NCBI GenBank assembly: GCA_003151625.1
Contig: PLYC01000013.1
Coordinates: forward strand, 29,210-93,209
DNA: 64,000 nt
Direction of reading: 5' to 3'
From: Candidatus Doudnabacteria bacterium
Lineage (GTDB): Bacteria > Patescibacteriota > Doudnabacteria > UBA920
Part shown: piece by piece, positions 1,536-40,121 of the stretch
How positions within the stretch are numbered: the first letter of the stretch is position 1
How the letters are laid out: every line of letters starts with the position of its first letter
Notes under the pieces: generated by a model
What the model was told of the DNA's origin: nothing
What the model saw: the letters and a program-made list of their open reading frames with translations, nothing else
Database searches by the model: none
Made by a program: the position numbers and the translations under genes

Positions 1536-2021
1536 ATGAAGCTTAAGGAAAAATATTGGCACGAATTTTTTGTAATAAGCATTTGTATTAAAACCCTAAC
1601 CGGCTTGGTGGAGACGGTTAGCGGGTTTTTACTTTTATGGATGAGCCCGGCCGCTTTGACTTTAGTGTTAAACAGATTTTCCCGTGGAGAGCAGATGGAA
1701 GATCCGCAGGACTTTTTTTTAATTTACGCGCATCAATATCTGCAGCATTTGACTTCAGGAACAAAAGTTTTTGCCGGTTTATACATTTTATCGCACGGAC
1801 TTATAAATTTGGTTCTGGTCGCCGGGTTAATTAAAGAAAAAACCTGGGCTTATTTGGTGGCCATTGGGGTTTTAATTTCCTTTATGACTTATCAGATTTT
1901 TAGGGTTGCTATGAATCATTCTTTGCCACTCGCGGTGTTAACTGTATTTGACGCATTTTTCGTGGTGATTATTTGGCACGAGTATAATTATTTAACCTCA
2001 AAATTGGCAAACTCTAAGTAG
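1536..2021 (+). CDS. membrane protein, DUF2127-like
   Basis: Four predicted TM segments; TGGTATAAT -10 at 1417-1425. Confidence 0.45.
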   Translation: MKLKEKYWHEFFVISICIKTLTGLVETVSGFLLLWMSPAALTLVLNRFSRGEQMEDPQDFFLIYAHQYLQHLTSGTKVFAGLYILSHGLINLVLVAGLIKEKTWAYLVAIGVLISFMTYQIFRVAMNHSLPLAVLTVFDAFFVVIIWHEYNYLTSKLANSK

Positions 2022-4551: not shown

Positions 4552-4854
4552 CTACTTCAGGTATGTGTAAGTCAGCCAGCTATGGACTGACACTTGGTCG
4601 TTGCCGGTGGACTCGGAGATGATGCGGTCAATCTCTTTCCGCATGATTTCCAGAACTCTCTCGTGGGGGTAGTGAGCGCGGAGTAAAGCGTAGGCTCCAA
4701 ACAGCCGGTCTTGAAGCTCTTCGGGAGTTGGGTAGCCTATAAGCGTGATTAGCGTGTTGGGCGGCTGAAGGTTCAGCAAATCGTCAACTATCTTTTGCAG
4801 ACCGGTTGACACATTTAACTGAATTTTCTCCCAAGTCGTTTGCGTATTGACCAT
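4552..4854 (-). CDS. hypothetical protein (GC-rich insert)
   Basis: 100-aa ORF; local GC far above background. Confidence 0.4.
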   Translation of the reverse strand: MVNTQTTWEKIQLNVSTGLQKIVDDLLNLQPPNTLITLIGYPTPEELQDRLFGAYALLRAHYPHERVLEIMRKEIDRIISESTGNDQVSVHSWLTYTYLK

Positions 4855-5121
4855 TCGACCTCCGTTTTGTCCCTAACTTCAGGACACTCAATACTATCAG
4901 GAAAATACAGAAAAGTCCAACGCACCAAACTCAAATTTGGCTTTTCCCTTTATTTGGAGCATAATTTAGTTATGCGGCCAAATATTGGACAAATAAAAAA
5001 TGAATTGGACGAGCTTTTTAAAGCCGTTTTAGAGAAACCGGCTGGTCTTGATTTTTGAAAACTATTTTTACCTTGAATCAAAATCCGCTGCTTAATTAGT
5101 AACGGATTTTGTTAAATGGGA

Positions 5122-22606: not shown

Positions 22607-22720
22607 AGAGAACGGAAGGGGTGGGATGGTTTTTAATGTTTCTTGCGGGAGGGGTGTTTGGCTTCCTTATAAGACCGTTGACAAGATTAAGGTTATGCTT
22701 ATAATGGAGCGGAAGGAGGA

Positions 22721-23182
22721 TTGCGCATGTCATACGGAACTCGCGATAAACTGGAAGGCCTTTCAATGCTTGCAGAGCTCATACTGCTAATTGGGGTGAC
22801 GTTTTTGGTCTTCCGATGGACCGGCGGATTTGGGGACGCCTGGCAGTTAAGCATTTTCTGGCGGGTGTTGGCAATACCCGCTATAAGTGGCTTTGTTGTT
22901 CTCTTGCTTGGGGCCTGGGGCGTCTGGGGAGATGACGACTACATTAGAGCCCTCAACTGGCGGTGTTACTTTCCCATTCAGTTTTTAGTTTTAAGCGGAA
23001 CAAGCTTTTACGCGCTTTTTGCGCTGTTGTTCCACCACTACAAGCTACACAACCCAAAGCTGGTCGGCGCGGGCGCGGACATGTTTGTGATGTTTTTTAT
23101 TTCCGCCGCGCTGGGCTTTGGTTCGCTTTCCTTGGGCGCTTGGCTTGGGGAAAAGATTGGCAAGACGCTGGCGCGGCGCTAG
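22721..23182 (+). CDS. membrane protein (GC-rich)
   Basis: 4-TM 153-aa ORF followed by terminator 23204-23243. Confidence 0.5.
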   Translation: MRMSYGTRDKLEGLSMLAELILLIGVTFLVFRWTGGFGDAWQLSIFWRVLAIPAISGFVVLLLGAWGVWGDDDYIRALNWRCYFPIQFLVLSGTSFYALFALLFHHYKLHNPKLVGAGADMFVMFFISAALGFGSLSLGAWLGEKIGKTLARR

Positions 23183-33011: not shown

Positions 33012-33269
33012 TTAAGCGTAAGCACCTTGGCCGCGGTGTTTAATTTTAATTACTGTTACCAAAAGTTCGTGTTTATAAATATCATAAATAATCCGGTAAG
33101 GCCATACTCTTACAGTATAAGATCCTTCGTACTTTCCTTTAAGCTTTTTTCCTATCCAAGGGTTATTGGCAATAGTTGAAAGGGTAATTTTAATCCGCTC
33201 GTTATAAGGGCTGGGAATTTTATTTAGTTGCTTTTCGGCCCTTGGGTCCAGTTTTAGTCGGAACGCCAT
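33012..33269 (-). CDS. RelE/ParE-family toxin
   Basis: MAFRLKLDPRAEKQL...YRIIYDIYKHELLVTVIKIKHR. Confidence 0.75.
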   Translation of the reverse strand: MAFRLKLDPRAEKQLNKIPSPYNERIKITLSTIANNPWIGKKLKGKYEGSYTVRVWPYRIIYDIYKHELLVTVIKIKHRGQGAYA

Positions 33270-33582
33270 ATGGTTTTTTTGCTTTCTCGGCCAAAACAAA
33301 ACCCTGCTTGGCCAATAATTCTTCCAGCGTAGTCCAATTTTTATGTTCACCTCTTTTAACAGCCGCGCGACTTTCTTTTAATTCCTTGTCTAGTTCGGGC
33401 ATCTCCTCCATGACATCCATAGTTTCTATTATGGATTCGTATTCTTCGTAGGAAAGAATAACGGCTTTGGGTTTGCCGTTTTCGGTTAAAGTATAAATAA
33501 CACCGGGGTTTTGCACATCTTGGGCAATATCAAAAATCTTCTTCCGAGCTTCGGTAATGGATAATGTGGTTTTAGAATTCAT
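33220..33582 (-). CDS. Phd/YefM-family antitoxin (ORF overlaps toxin start)
   Basis: TLSITEARKKIFDIAQDV...PVIYTLTENGKPKAVILSYEEYESI; palindrome ATGTACATAATAACGTACAT 20 bp upstream. Confidence 0.7.
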   Translation of the reverse strand: MNSKTTLSITEARKKIFDIAQDVQNPGVIYTLTENGKPKAVILSYEEYESIIETMDVMEEMPELDKELKESRAAVKRGEHKNWTTLEELLAKQGFVLAEKAKKPYGVPTKTGPKGRKATK

Positions 33583-33716: not shown

Positions 33717-34381
33717 CTAAAATAAACTCTTTTCTTTTAAGCTTACATATCCCGCGCCGGTTACTATAACGTGATCTAAAATTTCTATGCCAAGCAAACG
33801 GCCGGCAGCGGTTAATCTTTTTGTGACGGCGATATCTTCGTCAGAAGGTTCTAAACTGCCGCTGGGGTGGTTGTGGGCGACAATGATGTGCGAGGTAAGG
33901 TGTTTTATGGCCGGTTCAAAGACTTCGCGGGGATGGATGAGGCTGGAGTTTAGGGTGCCAATGGATATTACTTCGCGTTTTATTTCCCGGTTTTGTGTGT
34001 CCAAAAAGAACACCACAAAATGCTCTTTTTTGCTTTCGCGGATTTCTTTTAACTGTTCCCAAACTTCGCGGGGAGAAAGAATTAATGCAGAGGGTTTGTC
34101 TTTAAGCAAGCGGCGTCCGAGCTCAAAACAGGCAATTAACTCCCCTGCCTTAACCGGGCCGATGCCGTTTATTTTTTTAAGTTCCTCAAACCCGGCATTG
34201 GCAAGGCTCGTGCCTTTGTATTTGCGCAGAGCGCTTTCCGCCACCCGAATAACGTTGCTTCCTTTTGGGCCGGTCCTTAAAATAATTGCCAAAAGCTCCT
34301 GAGTCCCAAGCTTTCCCGGCCCATATTTAACCAGCCGCTCTCTTGGCATTTCTATTTTGTGGTAATTTTTTATTGCCATTT
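33717..34381 (-). CDS. RadC-family JAB/MPN protein
   Basis: HNHPSGSLEPSDEDIAVTKRL JAMM motif; likely start MAIKNYH at 34381. Confidence 0.8.
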
Positions 34382-34408
34382 TGTTTTGGTTAATAAACTT
34401 TTTAAATA

Positions 34409-34436
34409 TTGACAAGCGCTTTGTAAGTGCTATAAT
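34409..34436 (+). promoter_or_regulatory. consensus sigma-70 promoter
   Basis: TTGACA, 16 nt, TGcTATAAT. Confidence 0.6.
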
Positions 34437-34443
34437 AAATTTG

Positions 34444-34551
34444 TCCGAATACGTCCGTATGGTCGGTGTTTGTCCGCTTAAGGCGGGCAGAATAGGAACA
34501 GCCAACCTCTTAACAATGTTGGGTTGCCGGGTCATTGACAGCCCGGTTTTT
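34444..34551 (+). ncRNA. candidate small RNA (~108 nt)
   Basis: Starts about 7 nt after the consensus promoter; internal hairpin GTCCGC uuaag GCGGGC; ends in terminator CCGGG ucauugacag CCCGG UUUUU; no plausible ORF. Confidence 0.4.
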
Positions 34552-34557
34552 GGTTGC

Positions 34558-35136
34558 CTAAAGTTTTTTAATTAAACCTGTTTTAATAGATTTGTCGTAT
34601 AGTTTTTTCATATTGTTATCTCCTTCCAAAAAATCCCTAACAAAACCCGCTACTGCGTCTGCAAGGTGAATAATACAATTTGACTGGTCCGAAATTCCTC
34701 GGACTTTTTTAACTTGTATTTGTCTGCGGCGAAGTCCGGCGGCAACCCCGACCCTTTCTTTGCCTCCTAGCGCATCAATAAAAATAGATGCCTCGTAATT
34801 GGTTATTGGCGCAGTGGAAATAATAGCTTTAGCCGCAGCAATAATTGTCATTTCTTGGTAATCTCTCCGTCCAGAAAATGCGGCGTAATTGATTTTATTT
34901 ATAAACAAGGGATTCTCAAGAATTTTTTCCAAATAAGCCAATCTCCTGATTAAGCTGGTCTTTTTCCATTTACTAATCCCTTTTAAAGTTTTCTTTTCTA
35001 TTTTTTCCAGCTCCCGAATTAGCAACTCCCGTTCGGCGCCCGTAATAACAATTGCTACAAGAAAAAAACGTCATTGAGTATCCTGGCCGGTTTCGTCTAC
35101 GTAGCAGTAAAGTTTTTGTTTTGGTTTTATAGACAT
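34558..35136 (-). pseudogene. DUF3800-like gene interrupted by in-frame TGA
   Basis: One frame reads MSIKPKQKLYCYVDETGQDTQ-TGA-RFFLVAIVITGAEREL then the 155-aa ORF; the YCYVDETG start is typical of DUF3800; TGA at 35071-35073. Confidence 0.5.
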
Positions 35137-35289
35137 TTTGTTAGATATTATTATAGTATACAATCGTTCACCTAATGTCAACATTAAAAAATAGCCCATT
35201 TTTAGGCTATTTTTAAAATTTATCCACAATTTAAGCTGCTTTGGCTAAGCGGTCAAAGATTGGATATTACGACTTATGTGCATTTTGTA

Positions 35290-35472
35290 TTATTCGCTTT
35301 CTTCAGTACGCGTTTCGCCTGCAAGATGCCTTTTTGCTTTTTTTATTTTGTCTTCCAATTTAGGCGGCGGATTGGTCGGTTTTTCCAGGTCTTTAAATAG
35401 CCCAGGCTTGTATCCTGGCTCATCTCCAAATAAGTTGCCGGACTCCACCGGTTGCTGAGTCTCTTTTCTCAT
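35290..35472 (-). CDS. small hypothetical protein
   Basis: 60-aa ORF, charged. Confidence 0.3.
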   Translation of the reverse strand: MRKETQQPVESGNLFGDEPGYKPGLFKDLEKPTNPPPKLEDKIKKAKRHLAGETRTEESE

Positions 35473-35623
35473 ATATTTAAATTAAATATTCAATGTATCC
35501 CTATATTACCCTTTTTACATCCAATTTACAAATTTTATAGACTATTGTAATAAGGCAATTTTTGCGGATAAAGAAAAAAGGATATACTTTTGTATGTACT
35601 TTTTTCCAATTTCCCTAAATATT

Positions 35624-36169
35624 TCACGCTGCAGGCCTTTTTTGCCATTCTTGCGGTTCGGATTCAGCAGGTTTAGGTTGCAGTTTGGGTCGGATTGGTT
35701 TAACCACACCTAGTGTTGGCCTTGGTTCCGGTATAGGCACAAGCGGCTCAGTTAAGGGCGCGGGCTCATAAGTCCGCTCGACAGGATGTATCTCGCCGGT
35801 GATGTGCCAGTCCTTTTCCGCTAAAATTTTAAGCAGCAAATTTTTTTGTTCCTCGGCTTCATTGTTAAAAATAATTTTCACACCTTCTGTGCGCCCCGGG
35901 TCTGCCGCGGCCTTAACTGAAACCACTCGGCTGTATTCTTTATTAATAAAATCAATTACTTCGTCTCTAACCTCGGTGGCGGATTTCTTATCCGCTTTGG
36001 CAAACATAATATAATACGTTAGCCCTTTTACTCGTTCCTTTCTTGCCTGTAAAGCTTGCTCCACTGGATAGTGTTGTGCTTCATAGTCTATTTTTTTTTG
36101 CGCTCGGGCAAAGTCGGCCTCGGACATGCCGTTGTCTTCGTCGTTTGAAAGTTCGGAAGTTTGTTGCAT
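35624..36169 (-). CDS. hypothetical protein
   Basis: 181-aa ORF; Pro-rich C-terminus. Confidence 0.45.
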   Translation of the reverse strand: MQQTSELSNDEDNGMSEADFARAQKKIDYEAQHYPVEQALQARKERVKGLTYYIMFAKADKKSATEVRDEVIDFINKEYSRVVSVKAAADPGRTEGVKIIFNNEAEEQKNLLLKILAEKDWHITGEIHPVERTYEPAPLTEPLVPIPEPRPTLGVVKPIRPKLQPKPAESEPQEWQKRPAA

Positions 36170-36175
36170 ATTATT

Positions 36176-36282
36176 ATTCGCGACGTAGGCGAGACAAAGT
36201 AATGCCTTAAGGTATTACTTTGCGAGCCGAGGAGCTAAGAAAGGTTCAATACCTCGCGGCTTGCCCCGAGGAACCTTTATTT
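36176..36282 (+). ncRNA. structured ~110-nt element, copy 3
   Basis: Conserved blocks with a third internal hairpin (CAAAGTAATGCC ttaa GGTATTACTTTG); terminator plus T-run; minus-gene stop TAA at 36277-36279 lies inside. Confidence 0.4.
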
Positions 36283-36537
36283 CCATCGTTCCAGATGTGG
36301 AACGCCTTTAACCATCCACCCGGCCAAAAAGCCCGGGAAGCCCATTTCTTTTAATTTTTCTTTACAAAAAGCTTGCATTTGCTGGGCGTTCCAGCCTGGG
36401 TTTTTAAACGCGCCGTTTTGGTAGCAATAAGAGCAATACATTGTGTTCTTTGTGCCGTCCGCGTTGGTTCCTCCGCCGGCAGGGTCTTTTTTCATTGGCA
36501 TCCCGCAACTTTGACAATTTTTGTATGTTTGAGCCAT
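36277..36537 (-). CDS. putative zinc-ribbon domain protein
   Basis: CQSCGMPM...YCSYCYQNG pattern. Confidence 0.6.
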   Translation of the reverse strand: MAQTYKNCQSCGMPMKKDPAGGGTNADGTKNTMYCSYCYQNGAFKNPGWNAQQMQAFCKEKLKEMGFPGFLAGWMVKGVPHLERWK

Positions 36538-36602
36538 AGATTGCGTATTTAAATGTTAATAACTTAGCCCAATTTAATTTTACTCCCAAATAAAACAAAA
36601 AT

Positions 36603-36640
36603 CAAAAAAAATCGGCGCGCGGAAGGAAGATCCGCGCGCC
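36603..36640 (-). terminator. rho-independent terminator
   Basis: GGCGCGCGGA/TCCGCGCGCC 10-bp GC stem followed on the minus strand by an 8-nt U-run. Confidence 0.65.
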
Positions 36641-36664
36641 ACATGGTTAGAGAGTCGTGCTGCG

Positions 36665-37105
36665 CTAGCCTTTGAGATATTTGATGAAGCTCATTCGGGC
36701 GGCTTTATAAGATCGAGCCGCGCCTACAGCCTTATGGTACTTTTCCCCATGGAACACTAAGTTTGCGGTAAACATTAGTATCAAAAGGGTTACTGTTACA
36801 GTCCAGTTGAGCTTGAAACAGAAATAGCTCAACCAAAATGCAATACTCCCTAACGCAATGATCGTTGCCTGGTTGCACCAGATCCGTTTCTGACACCAGT
36901 AGTAGTAATTGCGTATGTTTGTGTCGTCCAAGGTTGGCCATTCCCCGCGAAGCGTCAATGTGAGGCTGGTTGTTACGATTGATGCAGCGACCGCGAGGGA
37001 GAACAAACTTTCTTGGACGGTAAGGTGTAGGGTGTACTTCATCCCCGCAACGCAGAACACAAACGCAAACACTTCGGCGGCTGACAGCACAAACACTCTT
37101 CTCAT
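36665..37105 (-). CDS. membrane protein
   Basis: 146-aa ORF with 3-4 TM helices. Confidence 0.4.
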   Translation of the reverse strand: MRRVFVLSAAEVFAFVFCVAGMKYTLHLTVQESLFSLAVAASIVTTSLTLTLRGEWPTLDDTNIRNYYYWCQKRIWCNQATIIALGSIAFWLSYFCFKLNWTVTVTLLILMFTANLVFHGEKYHKAVGAARSYKAARMSFIKYLKG

Positions 37106-37244
37106 TCTTTATCTTTCTCCTCTTTTAGAATTTGATTTGGGAATAAATTATTTTACTACAGAATGAGACTAATGTAAAGGGGGCGGAAAATTTATAAAAC
37201 AAAAAAACCCTTCGAAAATTAATTGAGGGGTTTAATTTAAAATT

Positions 37245-38012
37245 TTAGATCTTTTTTAACTCCAAACACATAAAGAGAGGGATTTCTTTTCTGGCCACAT
37301 CTTCGGCGGCTTTACGCGGGCCTTTATCGGAAGTTTTGTGGGAGACCCATTCTTCCAAGCGAGTTACGCAAAGTCCGGCTTTGGCAAAAGCTTTAAAGTA
37401 AACCTGCAAAGGGTGGTGAAAGGACATAGTAAATCGCTTCTTTTTTTCATCAGTTATCCCCTGTGTCATATCTACTTCCTGTGTTATTTCGGAAAGATAT
37501 TTATTGATATTGCGATACTGCGTACTGGTTTTTTCGTCGTATGCCCAAGATGAAGCGCCGGGTATTCTAAATGTGGGATGGTTTAAGACCAACACCAGCC
37601 TGCCGCCGGGTTTTAATACGCGCGATATTTCCGATATTGCCGCTTGTAAATTTTTTATATTTTGTAAAGCCAAAATGCAAATCGCCGCATCAAATCTGTT
37701 TGACGACAATGAAACCATTTTTTCTGCTGACAAAACCAAATATGTTTCGTTTTTTCCGGGGTGCTCTTTGGCCAACTTAATTAACTCCCCTGCTACATCC
37801 ACTCCTACAACTTTTGCCCCGGCCCGAGCCAGCTCACGCGCAAAAAAACCCTGCCCGCATCCCACGTCCAAAATTTCCTCCCCGGGTTTTGGGGAAAGGA
37901 TTCTTAAGAGATTTGGCTTTATAAGTTTTTCCTGGTAAGTGTCGTCGTTTTCTTCCAAATGCTGATTGTACCACCCGGCCACGTTGCCCCAGGACGTAGA
38001 TTTCTTTTGCAT
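37245..38012 (-). CDS. class I SAM-dependent methyltransferase
   Basis: Motif I ILDVGCGQGFFARELA; post-I acidic residue; Rossmann-like pattern. Confidence 0.8.
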   Translation of the reverse strand: MQKKSTSWGNVAGWYNQHLEENDDTYQEKLIKPNLLRILSPKPGEEILDVGCGQGFFARELARAGAKVVGVDVAGELIKLAKEHPGKNETYLVLSAEKMVSLSSNRFDAAICILALQNIKNLQAAISEISRVLKPGGRLVLVLNHPTFRIPGASSWAYDEKTSTQYRNINKYLSEITQEVDMTQGITDEKKKRFTMSFHHPLQVYFKAFAKAGLCVTRLEEWVSHKTSDKGPRKAAEDVARKEIPLFMCLELKKI

Positions 38013-39999: not shown

Positions 40000-40121
40000 A
40001 GACTAATGGCCGGGCGGTTGCCCTATGACGCTTAAAATAGGTTTTAGGCGCTAAGGAAAACCGGCGATTTTTGAACAATAACCCAAAATTATAGGAAAAT
40101 TTGAGGAAAATGTCAATTATT

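Follow-up and report, generated by a model that had tools for sequence, protein, structure and literature searches.

A small RNA gene lying tail to tail with a damaged DUF3800 gene in a Candidatus Doudnabacteria contig, and its apparent kinship to the DUF3800-IX RNAs

The sRNA gene and its surroundings

A 64-kb stretch of DNA from a Candidatus Doudnabacteria contig (hereafter the window) contains, between a RadC gene and a damaged gene of the DUF3800 family, a short segment which an initial annotation, made from the sequence alone, had put forward as a small RNA (sRNA) of ~108 nt with its own promoter and terminator. That placement holds, with RadC and the DUF3800 gene both read from the minus strand and the sRNA from the plus strand. 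Homologues of RadC likewise assign the window to Candidatus Doudnabacteria, a lineage of the Candidate Phyla Radiation. The features of the locus, in positions of the window, are as follows.

33720 to 34379, minus strand (read 34379..33720): RadC, 220 aa, 86% identity to its best homologue
34409 to 34436, plus strand: sigma-70-type promoter, with the -35 element TTGACA at 34409-34414, a 16-nt spacer, TG at 34428-29, a c, and the -10 element TATAAT at 34431-36
34443 to 34551, plus strand: predicted sRNA of ~109 nt, a DUF3800-associated three-way-junction RNA of type b, its start placed 7 nt past the -10 element and its 3' end at the U5 tract
34558 to 35136, minus strand (read 35136..34558): DUF3800 (PF12686) gene with an in-frame TGA at 35073..35071
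35153 to 35181, minus strand: promoter-like site of the DUF3800 gene, TTGACA, 17 nt, TACTAT, scoring 10/12

The sRNA promoter scored 12/12 in a promoter scan. Three sites in the 64-kb window reach this score, and only that of the sRNA also carries the TG of an extended -10 element, which is missing from the other two, at 22678 (+) and 40116 (-); the description of this site as the strongest promoter match in the window was therefore accurate. A terminator scan called a terminator on the plus strand, with a 7-pair GC-rich stem at 34526-34547 followed by TTTTT. The transcript contains a 38-codon ATG open reading frame (ORF) from 34459, which has no Shine-Dalgarno sequence, runs beyond the terminator and is broken in homologues by insertions and deletions in helix P3 whose lengths are not multiples of 3, so that the earlier statement that the segment contains no ORF was essentially right. 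Together with conservation across the family described below, the two scans agree with the proposal of an sRNA of about this length: it is a real stand-alone gene, structured, with its own strong promoter and intrinsic terminator and without a conserved ORF.

A family of RNAs linked to one DUF3800 clade

The sRNA belongs to a structured family, transcribed from a defined strand and obligately linked, tail to tail, to one clade of DUF3800 genes. An alignment of the homologues of the window DUF3800 clade was used to recover 80 metagenomic loci (loci carry L numbers in what follows). In searches with blastn and nhmmer, the window RNA had matches of 85% identity directly behind the DUF3800 gene in L087 and L088 and weaker ones in L089, L091/L092 and L147. 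Reading of these regions and a regular-expression search yielded a common design, namely a promoter, P1 (e.g., CAGCC), GAAUAC, P2, GUG, P3 and AUAGG closing P1 (GGCUG), continued in the 3' part by a GC hairpin and then a U run.

A MAFFT alignment of 34 distinct cores, with the window copy among the 34, formed the basis of a covariance model, R1. In this alignment 89% of the cells were paired, compared to 72% in shuffles, and 114 cells had changed on both sides, compared to 38 in shuffles; such changes on both sides occurred in 12 of the 16 pairs. The covariation score was 0.516 versus 0.207 in shuffles, with none of 500 shuffles scoring as high, and when the partner was slid by 1-3 columns the score was at most 0.14. 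A covariance-model-fitted alignment of 63 distinct sequences gave similar covariation figures. Furthermore, G.U pairs outnumber A.C pairs 43 to 10 in the family, which fixes the transcribed strand, and the promoters and U-tails lie on that same strand.

The R1 model has a single match in the window (34439-34502; 46.4 bits, E 3.7e-10), which arises by construction since the window copy is in the model. Over the 80 loci it has 77 matches, each on the strand opposite to the DUF3800 gene and adjacent to it, with some loci having two. The median distance from the 3' end of the RNA to the DUF3800 stop codon is 4 nt, with approximately 46 of 57 loci in the range from -2 to +14 nt and a gap of 6 nt in the window; in many loci the RNA 3' end overlaps the stop codon by 1-2 nt. 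Additionally, a promoter with a score of 10/12 or more stands at the equivalent position in 46 of the 59 assessable family members, ending 10-16 nt before the model start. Where a locus holds two copies, as in L147, each has a separate promoter and terminator.

Structure of the RNA

The core of the RNA is a three-way junction in the order P1, GAAUAC, P2, GUG, P3, AUAGG. The parts of the window copy, all on the plus strand, are as follows.

34444 to 34446: 5' strand of P1, UCC, pairing with GGA at 34495-34497; a G34443-C34499 pair is possible with A34498 bulged
34447 to 34451: junction J1/2, GAAUA; CCGAA, A13 and C14 are invariant in 34 sequences
34452 to 34465: P2 hairpin, CGUCC, loop GUAU, GGUCG, with a U.U mismatch at 34454/34463
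34466 to 34468: junction J2/3, GUG; GGUG is near-invariant in the family
34469 to 34491: P3 hairpin of 9 bp, UUUGUCCGC, loop UUAAG, GCGGGCAGA, including GUCCGC/GCGGGC
34492 to 34497: junction J3/1, AUA, and 3' strand of P1, GGA; UAGG is invariant
34502 to 34522: P4 hairpin, CCAAC, loop CUCUUAACAAU, GUUGG, kept in 7/7 type b/c sequences
34527 to 34551: P5 hairpin, CCGGG, loop UCAUUGACAG, CCCGG, which with the U5 tract is the intrinsic terminator

Across the family P1 has 5 bp, which covary (AGCC/GGCU, AACC/GGUU, GACC/GGUC, GGCC/GGCC) with 96.5% of the cells paired. The U.U mismatch in P2 recurs in L089, L091 and L172, and L087 has a U-A pair there. For P3, which includes the 6-bp hairpin picked out in the initial annotation, each of the six modelled pairs has changed on both sides within the family, and the window copy differs from that of L087 by two one-sided changes that keep the pairing (U.G to U-A; G-C to G.U). 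P4 shows a compensatory change, CCAUC/GAUGG, in the second L147 RNA (L147b). The CCGGG-loop-CCCGG hairpin with its U tract, also recognized earlier, corresponds to P5, the stem of which covaries (CCGGG/CCCGG; CCUGG/CCAGG in L147; CUAAG/CUUAG in the long forms) around a conserved GACAG loop motif.

Subtypes and the copy in the window

Three subtypes were distinguished. The common form, type a, has a 5-bp P1 with the terminator hairpin directly after the core. The rarer type b comprises the window copy, L087/88, L172, the minus-strand copy of L174 and one of the two L147 RNAs; in this subtype P1 has 3-4 bp, transcription starts right at P1, and an invariant GGA(A/G)C(A/G/U)GCCA(A/U)CC leads into P4, which with P5 makes up two extra conserved hairpins. 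The long type c (L168-170 and the plus-strand copy of L174) carries a ~100-nt structured insertion in the P4 loop, for which no Rfam match was found, and has a separate terminator. The type c copies at L168 5879-6110 (+) and L174 1136-1360 (+) lie beside a type a or b copy and are co-directional with DUF3800, ~300 nt away from it. The combinations seen per locus are a+b, a+c and b+c.

Conservation and covariation in related genomes, which had been named as a check on the candidate, are both present: covariation in the family is strong, and in L087, L172 and L174 the RNA is 89, 83 and 88% identical to that of the window, compared to 71, 71 and 73% for the DUF3800 coding sequence. Because its identity is higher than that of the coding sequence and the differences in P3 keep the pairing, the RNA looks intact and constrained, which is sequence-based evidence that it is under stronger constraint than the protein gene.

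Comparison with housekeeping RNAs and Rfam

The initial annotation had seen in GGAACAGCCAACC a loose likeness to domain IV of the signal recognition particle (SRP) RNA, and this likeness, together with the strong promoter, is what speaks for the SRP (4.5S) RNA or another housekeeping RNA. At Rfam gathering thresholds only a tRNA was found in the window, and at E<=10 with relaxed filters the 401-nt and 131-nt slices around the sRNA returned noise only, with no SRP, 6S or DUF3800 family, so the Rfam check proposed for SRP, 6S and other families came back empty. In the DUF3800 RNA, the segment in question runs from the 3' strand of P1 through a linker into the 5' strand of P4. The bacterial SRP RNA (RF00169 / RF01854) also differs from this RNA in detail, in that it has the loops of helix 8 (domain IV) and a GNRA tetraloop, whereas the hairpin loop here is UUAAG and GGAACAGCC is the P1'-linker-P4 segment. 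In addition, SRP RNA is a single housekeeping gene, whereas homologues of the window RNA follow DUF3800 genes in one or two copies per locus (at most two), are absent upstream of RadC in close relatives, and in the window lie in a variable cassette that is absent from L085. The RNA is therefore not SRP RNA, and a housekeeping identity is extremely improbable.

Two weak matches without significance involve the P4 loop AACCUCUUAACAAUGUU (34504-34520), one to the abiF RNA hairpin (14.5 bits, E 3.3) and one to the L19-Flavobacteria leader (17.2 bits, E 0.47).

The DUF3800 partner

The ORF fragments on this side of the sRNA are parts of a single DUF3800 gene, which with the stop bridged scores 23.8 bits in Pfam against a cutoff of 21. 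It has many intact homologues of ~190 aa at 62-74% identity, the 74% being to protein P0121. The in-frame TGA falls at a position where 24 of 24 aligned homologues have Gly, and a single change, GGA to TGA, accounts for it; R157H and T101A are two further changes at near-invariant columns. Recoding of UGA was considered and rejected: TGA terminates 5 of the 35 long ORFs in the window and is thus an ordinary stop codon there, so the in-frame TGA represents either a nonsense mutation, which could be very recent, or an error of sequencing or assembly.

Residues D14, E15, D121 and D160 are invariant in 42 DUF3800 sequences. An AlphaFold2 model of the clade (confidence score pLDDT 94) has RNase H2/HII structures as its top PDB matches (Foldseek E 2e-6, TM 0.5-0.6), and on this model the partner is predicted to have an RNase H2-like nuclease fold, which agrees with published descriptions of DUF3800 (PMC7736814, PMC10910872). 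The leader that would run from the 10/12 promoter-like site to the DUF3800 start is ~10 nt long and has no Shine-Dalgarno sequence.

In several relatives, a conserved ORF of ~51 aa (MNTTRH..KFIPF.FTIK.PPP.K.R.ITARD.QGKIVHSVPVSA) lies just upstream of DUF3800 and ends within a few nt of its start (L087 ~150-305, L089 ~790-945, L168 ~4830-4985 and L174 ~95-250). It may be a small regulator or a third component. It is absent from the window and from L172, which instead share the promoter directly upstream of DUF3800, and an obligatory third component was rejected for this reason.

Relation to DUF3800-associated RNAs and to other systems

The association of structured RNAs with DUF3800 was described by Weinberg 2017 (PMC5737381), who reported eleven mutually dissimilar motifs, several of them followed by intrinsic terminators, and offered no functional hypothesis; the DUF3800-I RNAs were found on both sides of the gene and in both orientations. 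Like DUF3800-I to -XI, the family described here consists of structured RNAs tied to DUF3800 genes, and both a conserved structure with covariation and a consistent PF12686 association are found. The RNA of the window therefore is within the known class of DUF3800-associated RNAs and is not a new kind of element. None of DUF3800-I to -XI matched it among the Rfam 15 models.

Within that class the likeness is to DUF3800-IX (RF02968; PMC5737381), which has the same order and junction letters (P1, CCGAA, P2, often with a GUAU loop, (G)UG, P3, (C/A)UAGG) and, in L086, likewise adjoins a DUF3800 gene convergently with its own promoter and terminator. The family member that came closest, L110, had DUF3800-IX as its top Rfam match in the correct register, at 18.9 bits (E 0.059) against a threshold of 36.8. 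It was not matched by any of 11 family loci at E<=1, by the type b/c copies of L174 at E<=5, or by the window at E<=10. Conversely, R1 misses the two canonical DUF3800-IX RNAs of L086 by default, and with the filters off scores only 1.4 bits. The two groups also differ in structure: P1 has ~11 bp in the Rfam consensus of DUF3800-IX and 3-5 bp in the new family, which further has a bulge or U.U mismatch in P2 and a conserved 3' hairpin with CUCU/UAAC loop motifs, type b adding P5 with the UCAUUGACAG loop. The new family also goes with another DUF3800 clade, the likeness of which to the L086 protein is marginal, with one 31-aa tblastn match at 39% identity (E 0.001). Canonical membership in DUF3800-IX was rejected on the Rfam score and the reciprocal search. 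Since the architecture matches, the scores fall below threshold and the reciprocal search fails, we file the family as a diverged variant; judged by sequence and architecture against the Rfam 15 models, DUF3800-IX appears to be its closest kind, of which it is not a member by the Rfam criterion.

The DUF3800 RNAs were flagged in 2017 as a puzzle, with eleven unrelated structures and one protein domain (PMC5737381). To this the present family adds a structural variant undetected by Rfam 15; a precise definition of the unit as a consensus promoter, an RNA of ~90-110 nt and a terminator abutting the stop codon; and evidence for tighter constraint on the RNA than on the protein gene. It further places such modules in Candidate Phyla Radiation bacteria, with their reduced genomes, within a shuffling cassette, and supplies compact constructs of ~0.8 kb.

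Retron nucleic acids neutralise their effectors. In the type VII retron, a reverse transcriptase and a non-coding RNA accompany a DUF3800 effector (PMC7736814), and the likeness to the present locus lies in the combination of a DUF3800 nuclease with a dedicated structured non-coding nucleic acid. In contrast to that retron, there is no reverse transcriptase in or near the locus, the RNA does not have the msr/msd layout, and the PADLOC model DUF3800_VII barely touches the clade (E 0.009). More broadly, DUF3800 is known both from type VII retrons, as their effector, and from CRISPR loci, as an accessory nuclease (PMC7736814, PMC10910872, PMC12669027). A second comparison is provided by the abiF RNA (RCd22), a structured RNA from the 2017 screen that binds and neutralises the neighbouring toxic AbiF and lowers AbiF expression (PMC12373285). 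AbiF, however, is a HEPN-like Abi_2 protein, compared to the predicted RNase H2-like fold here, the RNA structures differ, and the type b copies of L174 have no abiF match at E<=5.

In some type I toxin-antitoxin systems, such as par RNAI/RNAII and txpA/RatA, the two genes converge on a shared terminator region. The present pairs resemble them in that an sRNA and its partner gene stand tail to tail with abutting or overlapping 3' ends. A type I toxin is a small hydrophobic membrane peptide, whereas here the partner is a soluble nuclease of ~190 aa, the junction of the RNA is deeply conserved, and some copies are co-directional with the gene. Type III (ToxI-like) systems, in contrast, have tandem direct repeats upstream of the gene and co-directional with it; the RNA of the window is a single unit convergent with the gene.

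The variable cassette

Upstream of RadC the sRNA shows no conservation, being absent from that position in 80 species-level GTDB genomes/loci and in five close metagenomic relatives, where homology ends at ~34393; the RNA is thus not tied to RadC, which leads to the view of a cassette. In L085 the methyltransferase that lies at 37245-38012 in the window directly abuts RadC, and because 34380-37244 is absent between these two genes we regard it as a variable cassette. Besides the sRNA and the DUF3800 pseudogene, its 2.9 kb comprise a gene for a Zn_ribbon_2 protein and two ORFs of 181 aa and 146 aa, the latter membrane-like. L086 has a similar cassette placed on the opposite side of RadC, and there two promoter-RNA-terminator units stand behind the DUF3800 gene on the opposite strand and are matched by the Rfam DUF3800-IX model at 51.3 and 43.4 bits (threshold 36.8). 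The position of these RNAs behind a DUF3800 gene marks DUF3800 as the relevant neighbour; the initial annotation had treated the pseudogene as a mere neighbour, and it turns out to be the key to the identity of the RNA. A search for flanking repeats that would mark a mobile cassette gave none that was convincing.

The minus strand of 34380-34560 has neither a promoter-like site for RadC nor a terminator for DUF3800. RadC is probably transcribed by read-through across the sRNA in antisense, facing the very strong convergent promoter. Directly downstream of RadC, an overlapping pair of genes for a PhdYefM antitoxin and a ParE toxin occupies 33012-33582 (-) and is kept in L081 and L085.

Proposed function

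On balance, we favour the interpretation that the sRNA is a dedicated RNA partner, or antitoxin-like regulator, of the adjacent DUF3800 nuclease and a type b variant of a DUF3800-IX-like family. The conserved junction (CCGAAUAC, AUAGG) would be recognised directly by the cognate nuclease, and the abundant RNA would keep that nuclease in check as an antitoxin does, after the example of the abiF RNA and AbiF, with the type VII retron RNA/msDNA as a second analogy. Antisense overlap with the 3' end of the DUF3800 mRNA may add to this restraint, a component which is plausible because no DUF3800 terminator would fit between the abutting 3' ends and which in the window would also affect read-through into RadC. 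Since the nuclease gene of the window has a premature stop, the RNA here is probably a still-intact orphan partner. Consistent with an antitoxin-like role, the promoter of the RNA (12/12) is stronger than that of the protein gene (10/12), different DUF3800 clades carry different RNAs (PMC5737381; L086 compared to the window), and DUF3800 has the roles of retron effector and CRISPR accessory nuclease noted above. Circumstantially, toxin-antitoxin genes lie nearby (PhdYefM/ParE; PemK in L086), and the RNA has survived after the protein gene was hit. If the antitoxin-like model holds, DUF3800 and its RNA would constitute a new class of RNA-gated nuclease system.

Several results weigh against this interpretation. 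In the window both outer pairs of P1 are broken, leaving only 3-4 bp, and single-sequence folding of the window RNA is uninformative (z-score -1.1), because of which the support for the RNA is comparative and not thermodynamic. No match to this DUF3800 clade was found in IMG/VR, among INPHARED phages or in PLSDB plasmids. PADLOC does not list the clade as defence, giving two marginal matches, both to protein P0134 (E ~0.009), and none for the other four proteins. Among the papers available for searching, no experiment or later functional study on DUF3800 RNAs was found. Furthermore, the protein partner is broken here, so that the RNA may do nothing in this genome, and a mechanism that is purely antisense would also suit the strict tail-to-tail geometry.

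Such a mechanism would make the RNA a pure cis-antisense regulator of the kind formed by type I pairs with 3' overlap, acting by pairing with the mRNA and subsequent degradation, or by collision of transcription, and without protein binding. With the RNA directly at the stop codon of DUF3800, the transcript of that gene (here that of RadC as well) must cross the sRNA gene, and the median gap of 4 nt, the 1-2 nt overlap with the stop codon at many loci, the lack of a DUF3800 terminator and of a minus-strand RadC promoter within 34380-34560, and the very strong convergent promoter are all as this explanation would have them. The invariant junction nucleotides and covarying stems, however, exceed what antisense pairing needs; the long type c copies of L168 and L174 are on the same strand as DUF3800, ~300 nt off; DUF3800-I RNAs vary in their side and orientation relative to the gene (PMC5737381); and pairing with the DUF3800 translation start is inconsistent, with a mean z of -0.57 over 32 loci and +0.87 in the window. 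We consequently regard regulation by antisense alone as rather unlikely. Pairing of the sRNA in trans with the DUF3800 translation start was also considered as a mechanism of its own and was rejected, there being no consistent signal over the 32 loci.

The obligate pairing of one RNA with one protein clade would also be expected of a positive cofactor, in which the RNA is a scaffold, activator or specificity subunit that DUF3800 needs, for example to present or recognise a nucleic-acid target. RNase H-fold enzymes act on RNA-containing duplexes, and DUF3800 accompanies RNA-guided Cas12a2/a3 and type VI-F loci (PMC10910872, PMC13594972, PMC12669027). A cofactor of this kind nevertheless has, in our estimate, a low probability: the family has no hypervariable single-stranded segment that could serve as a guide, its variable parts being paired stems and loops, and a constitutive 12/12 promoter together with retention of the RNA after loss of the protein suit an antidote better.

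It is also possible, though we doubt it, that the identity is right and the RNA of the window is functionless, being a relic, orphaned not long ago, of a DUF3800 cassette that is decaying within a variable region. The in-frame TGA at a near-invariant Gly with R157H and T101A, the weakening of P1 to 3-4 bp and the lack of the whole 34380-37244 segment in L085 point in this direction. The promoter, however, is still 12/12 with TG and P2-P5 are all intact; a short P1 is common to type b copies beside intact DUF3800 genes (L087, L172, L174); and the TGA is possibly a sequencing or assembly error or very recent.

Going beyond the role of an antitoxin-like partner favoured above, we tentatively suggest, as a possibility short of an even chance, a minimal two-part module in which the three-way junction binds and gates a stand-alone RNase H2-like DUF3800. 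The RNA would act as antitoxin or sensor, and its loss, e.g., through a phage-induced shut-off of transcription, would free the nuclease. If true, this module would amount to an abortive-infection switch that resembles a retron or AbiF but has no reverse transcriptase, the P4-P5 domain of type b would be a previously undescribed add-on module, and the loci with two RNAs (a+b, a+c, b+c) would point to combinatorial control.

Other features of the window and of related loci

An additional unit of similar layout was observed in L086 at 5935-5815 (-), where TTGACA, 17 nt and TATAAT precede ~90 nt and a terminator, antisense to the 3' end of the PemK toxin gene; it resembles neither R1 nor the Rfam families at gathering threshold. 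In L089, a sub-threshold match to a T-box leader at 1712-1839 (+) lies beside the promoter region of the DUF3800 RNA (37.9 bits against a gathering threshold of 93, E 4.5e-05).

The remaining two 12/12 promoters of the window stand in front of coding sequences. That at 40088-40116 (-) is followed by a leader of ~150 nt to 39936 and then by an ORF that has a good Shine-Dalgarno sequence; the leader is without a match in Rfam and could be cis-regulatory and as yet unrecognised. That at 22678-22705 (+) is the promoter of an mRNA with the Shine-Dalgarno sequence GGAAGGAGG and an ATG at 22728.

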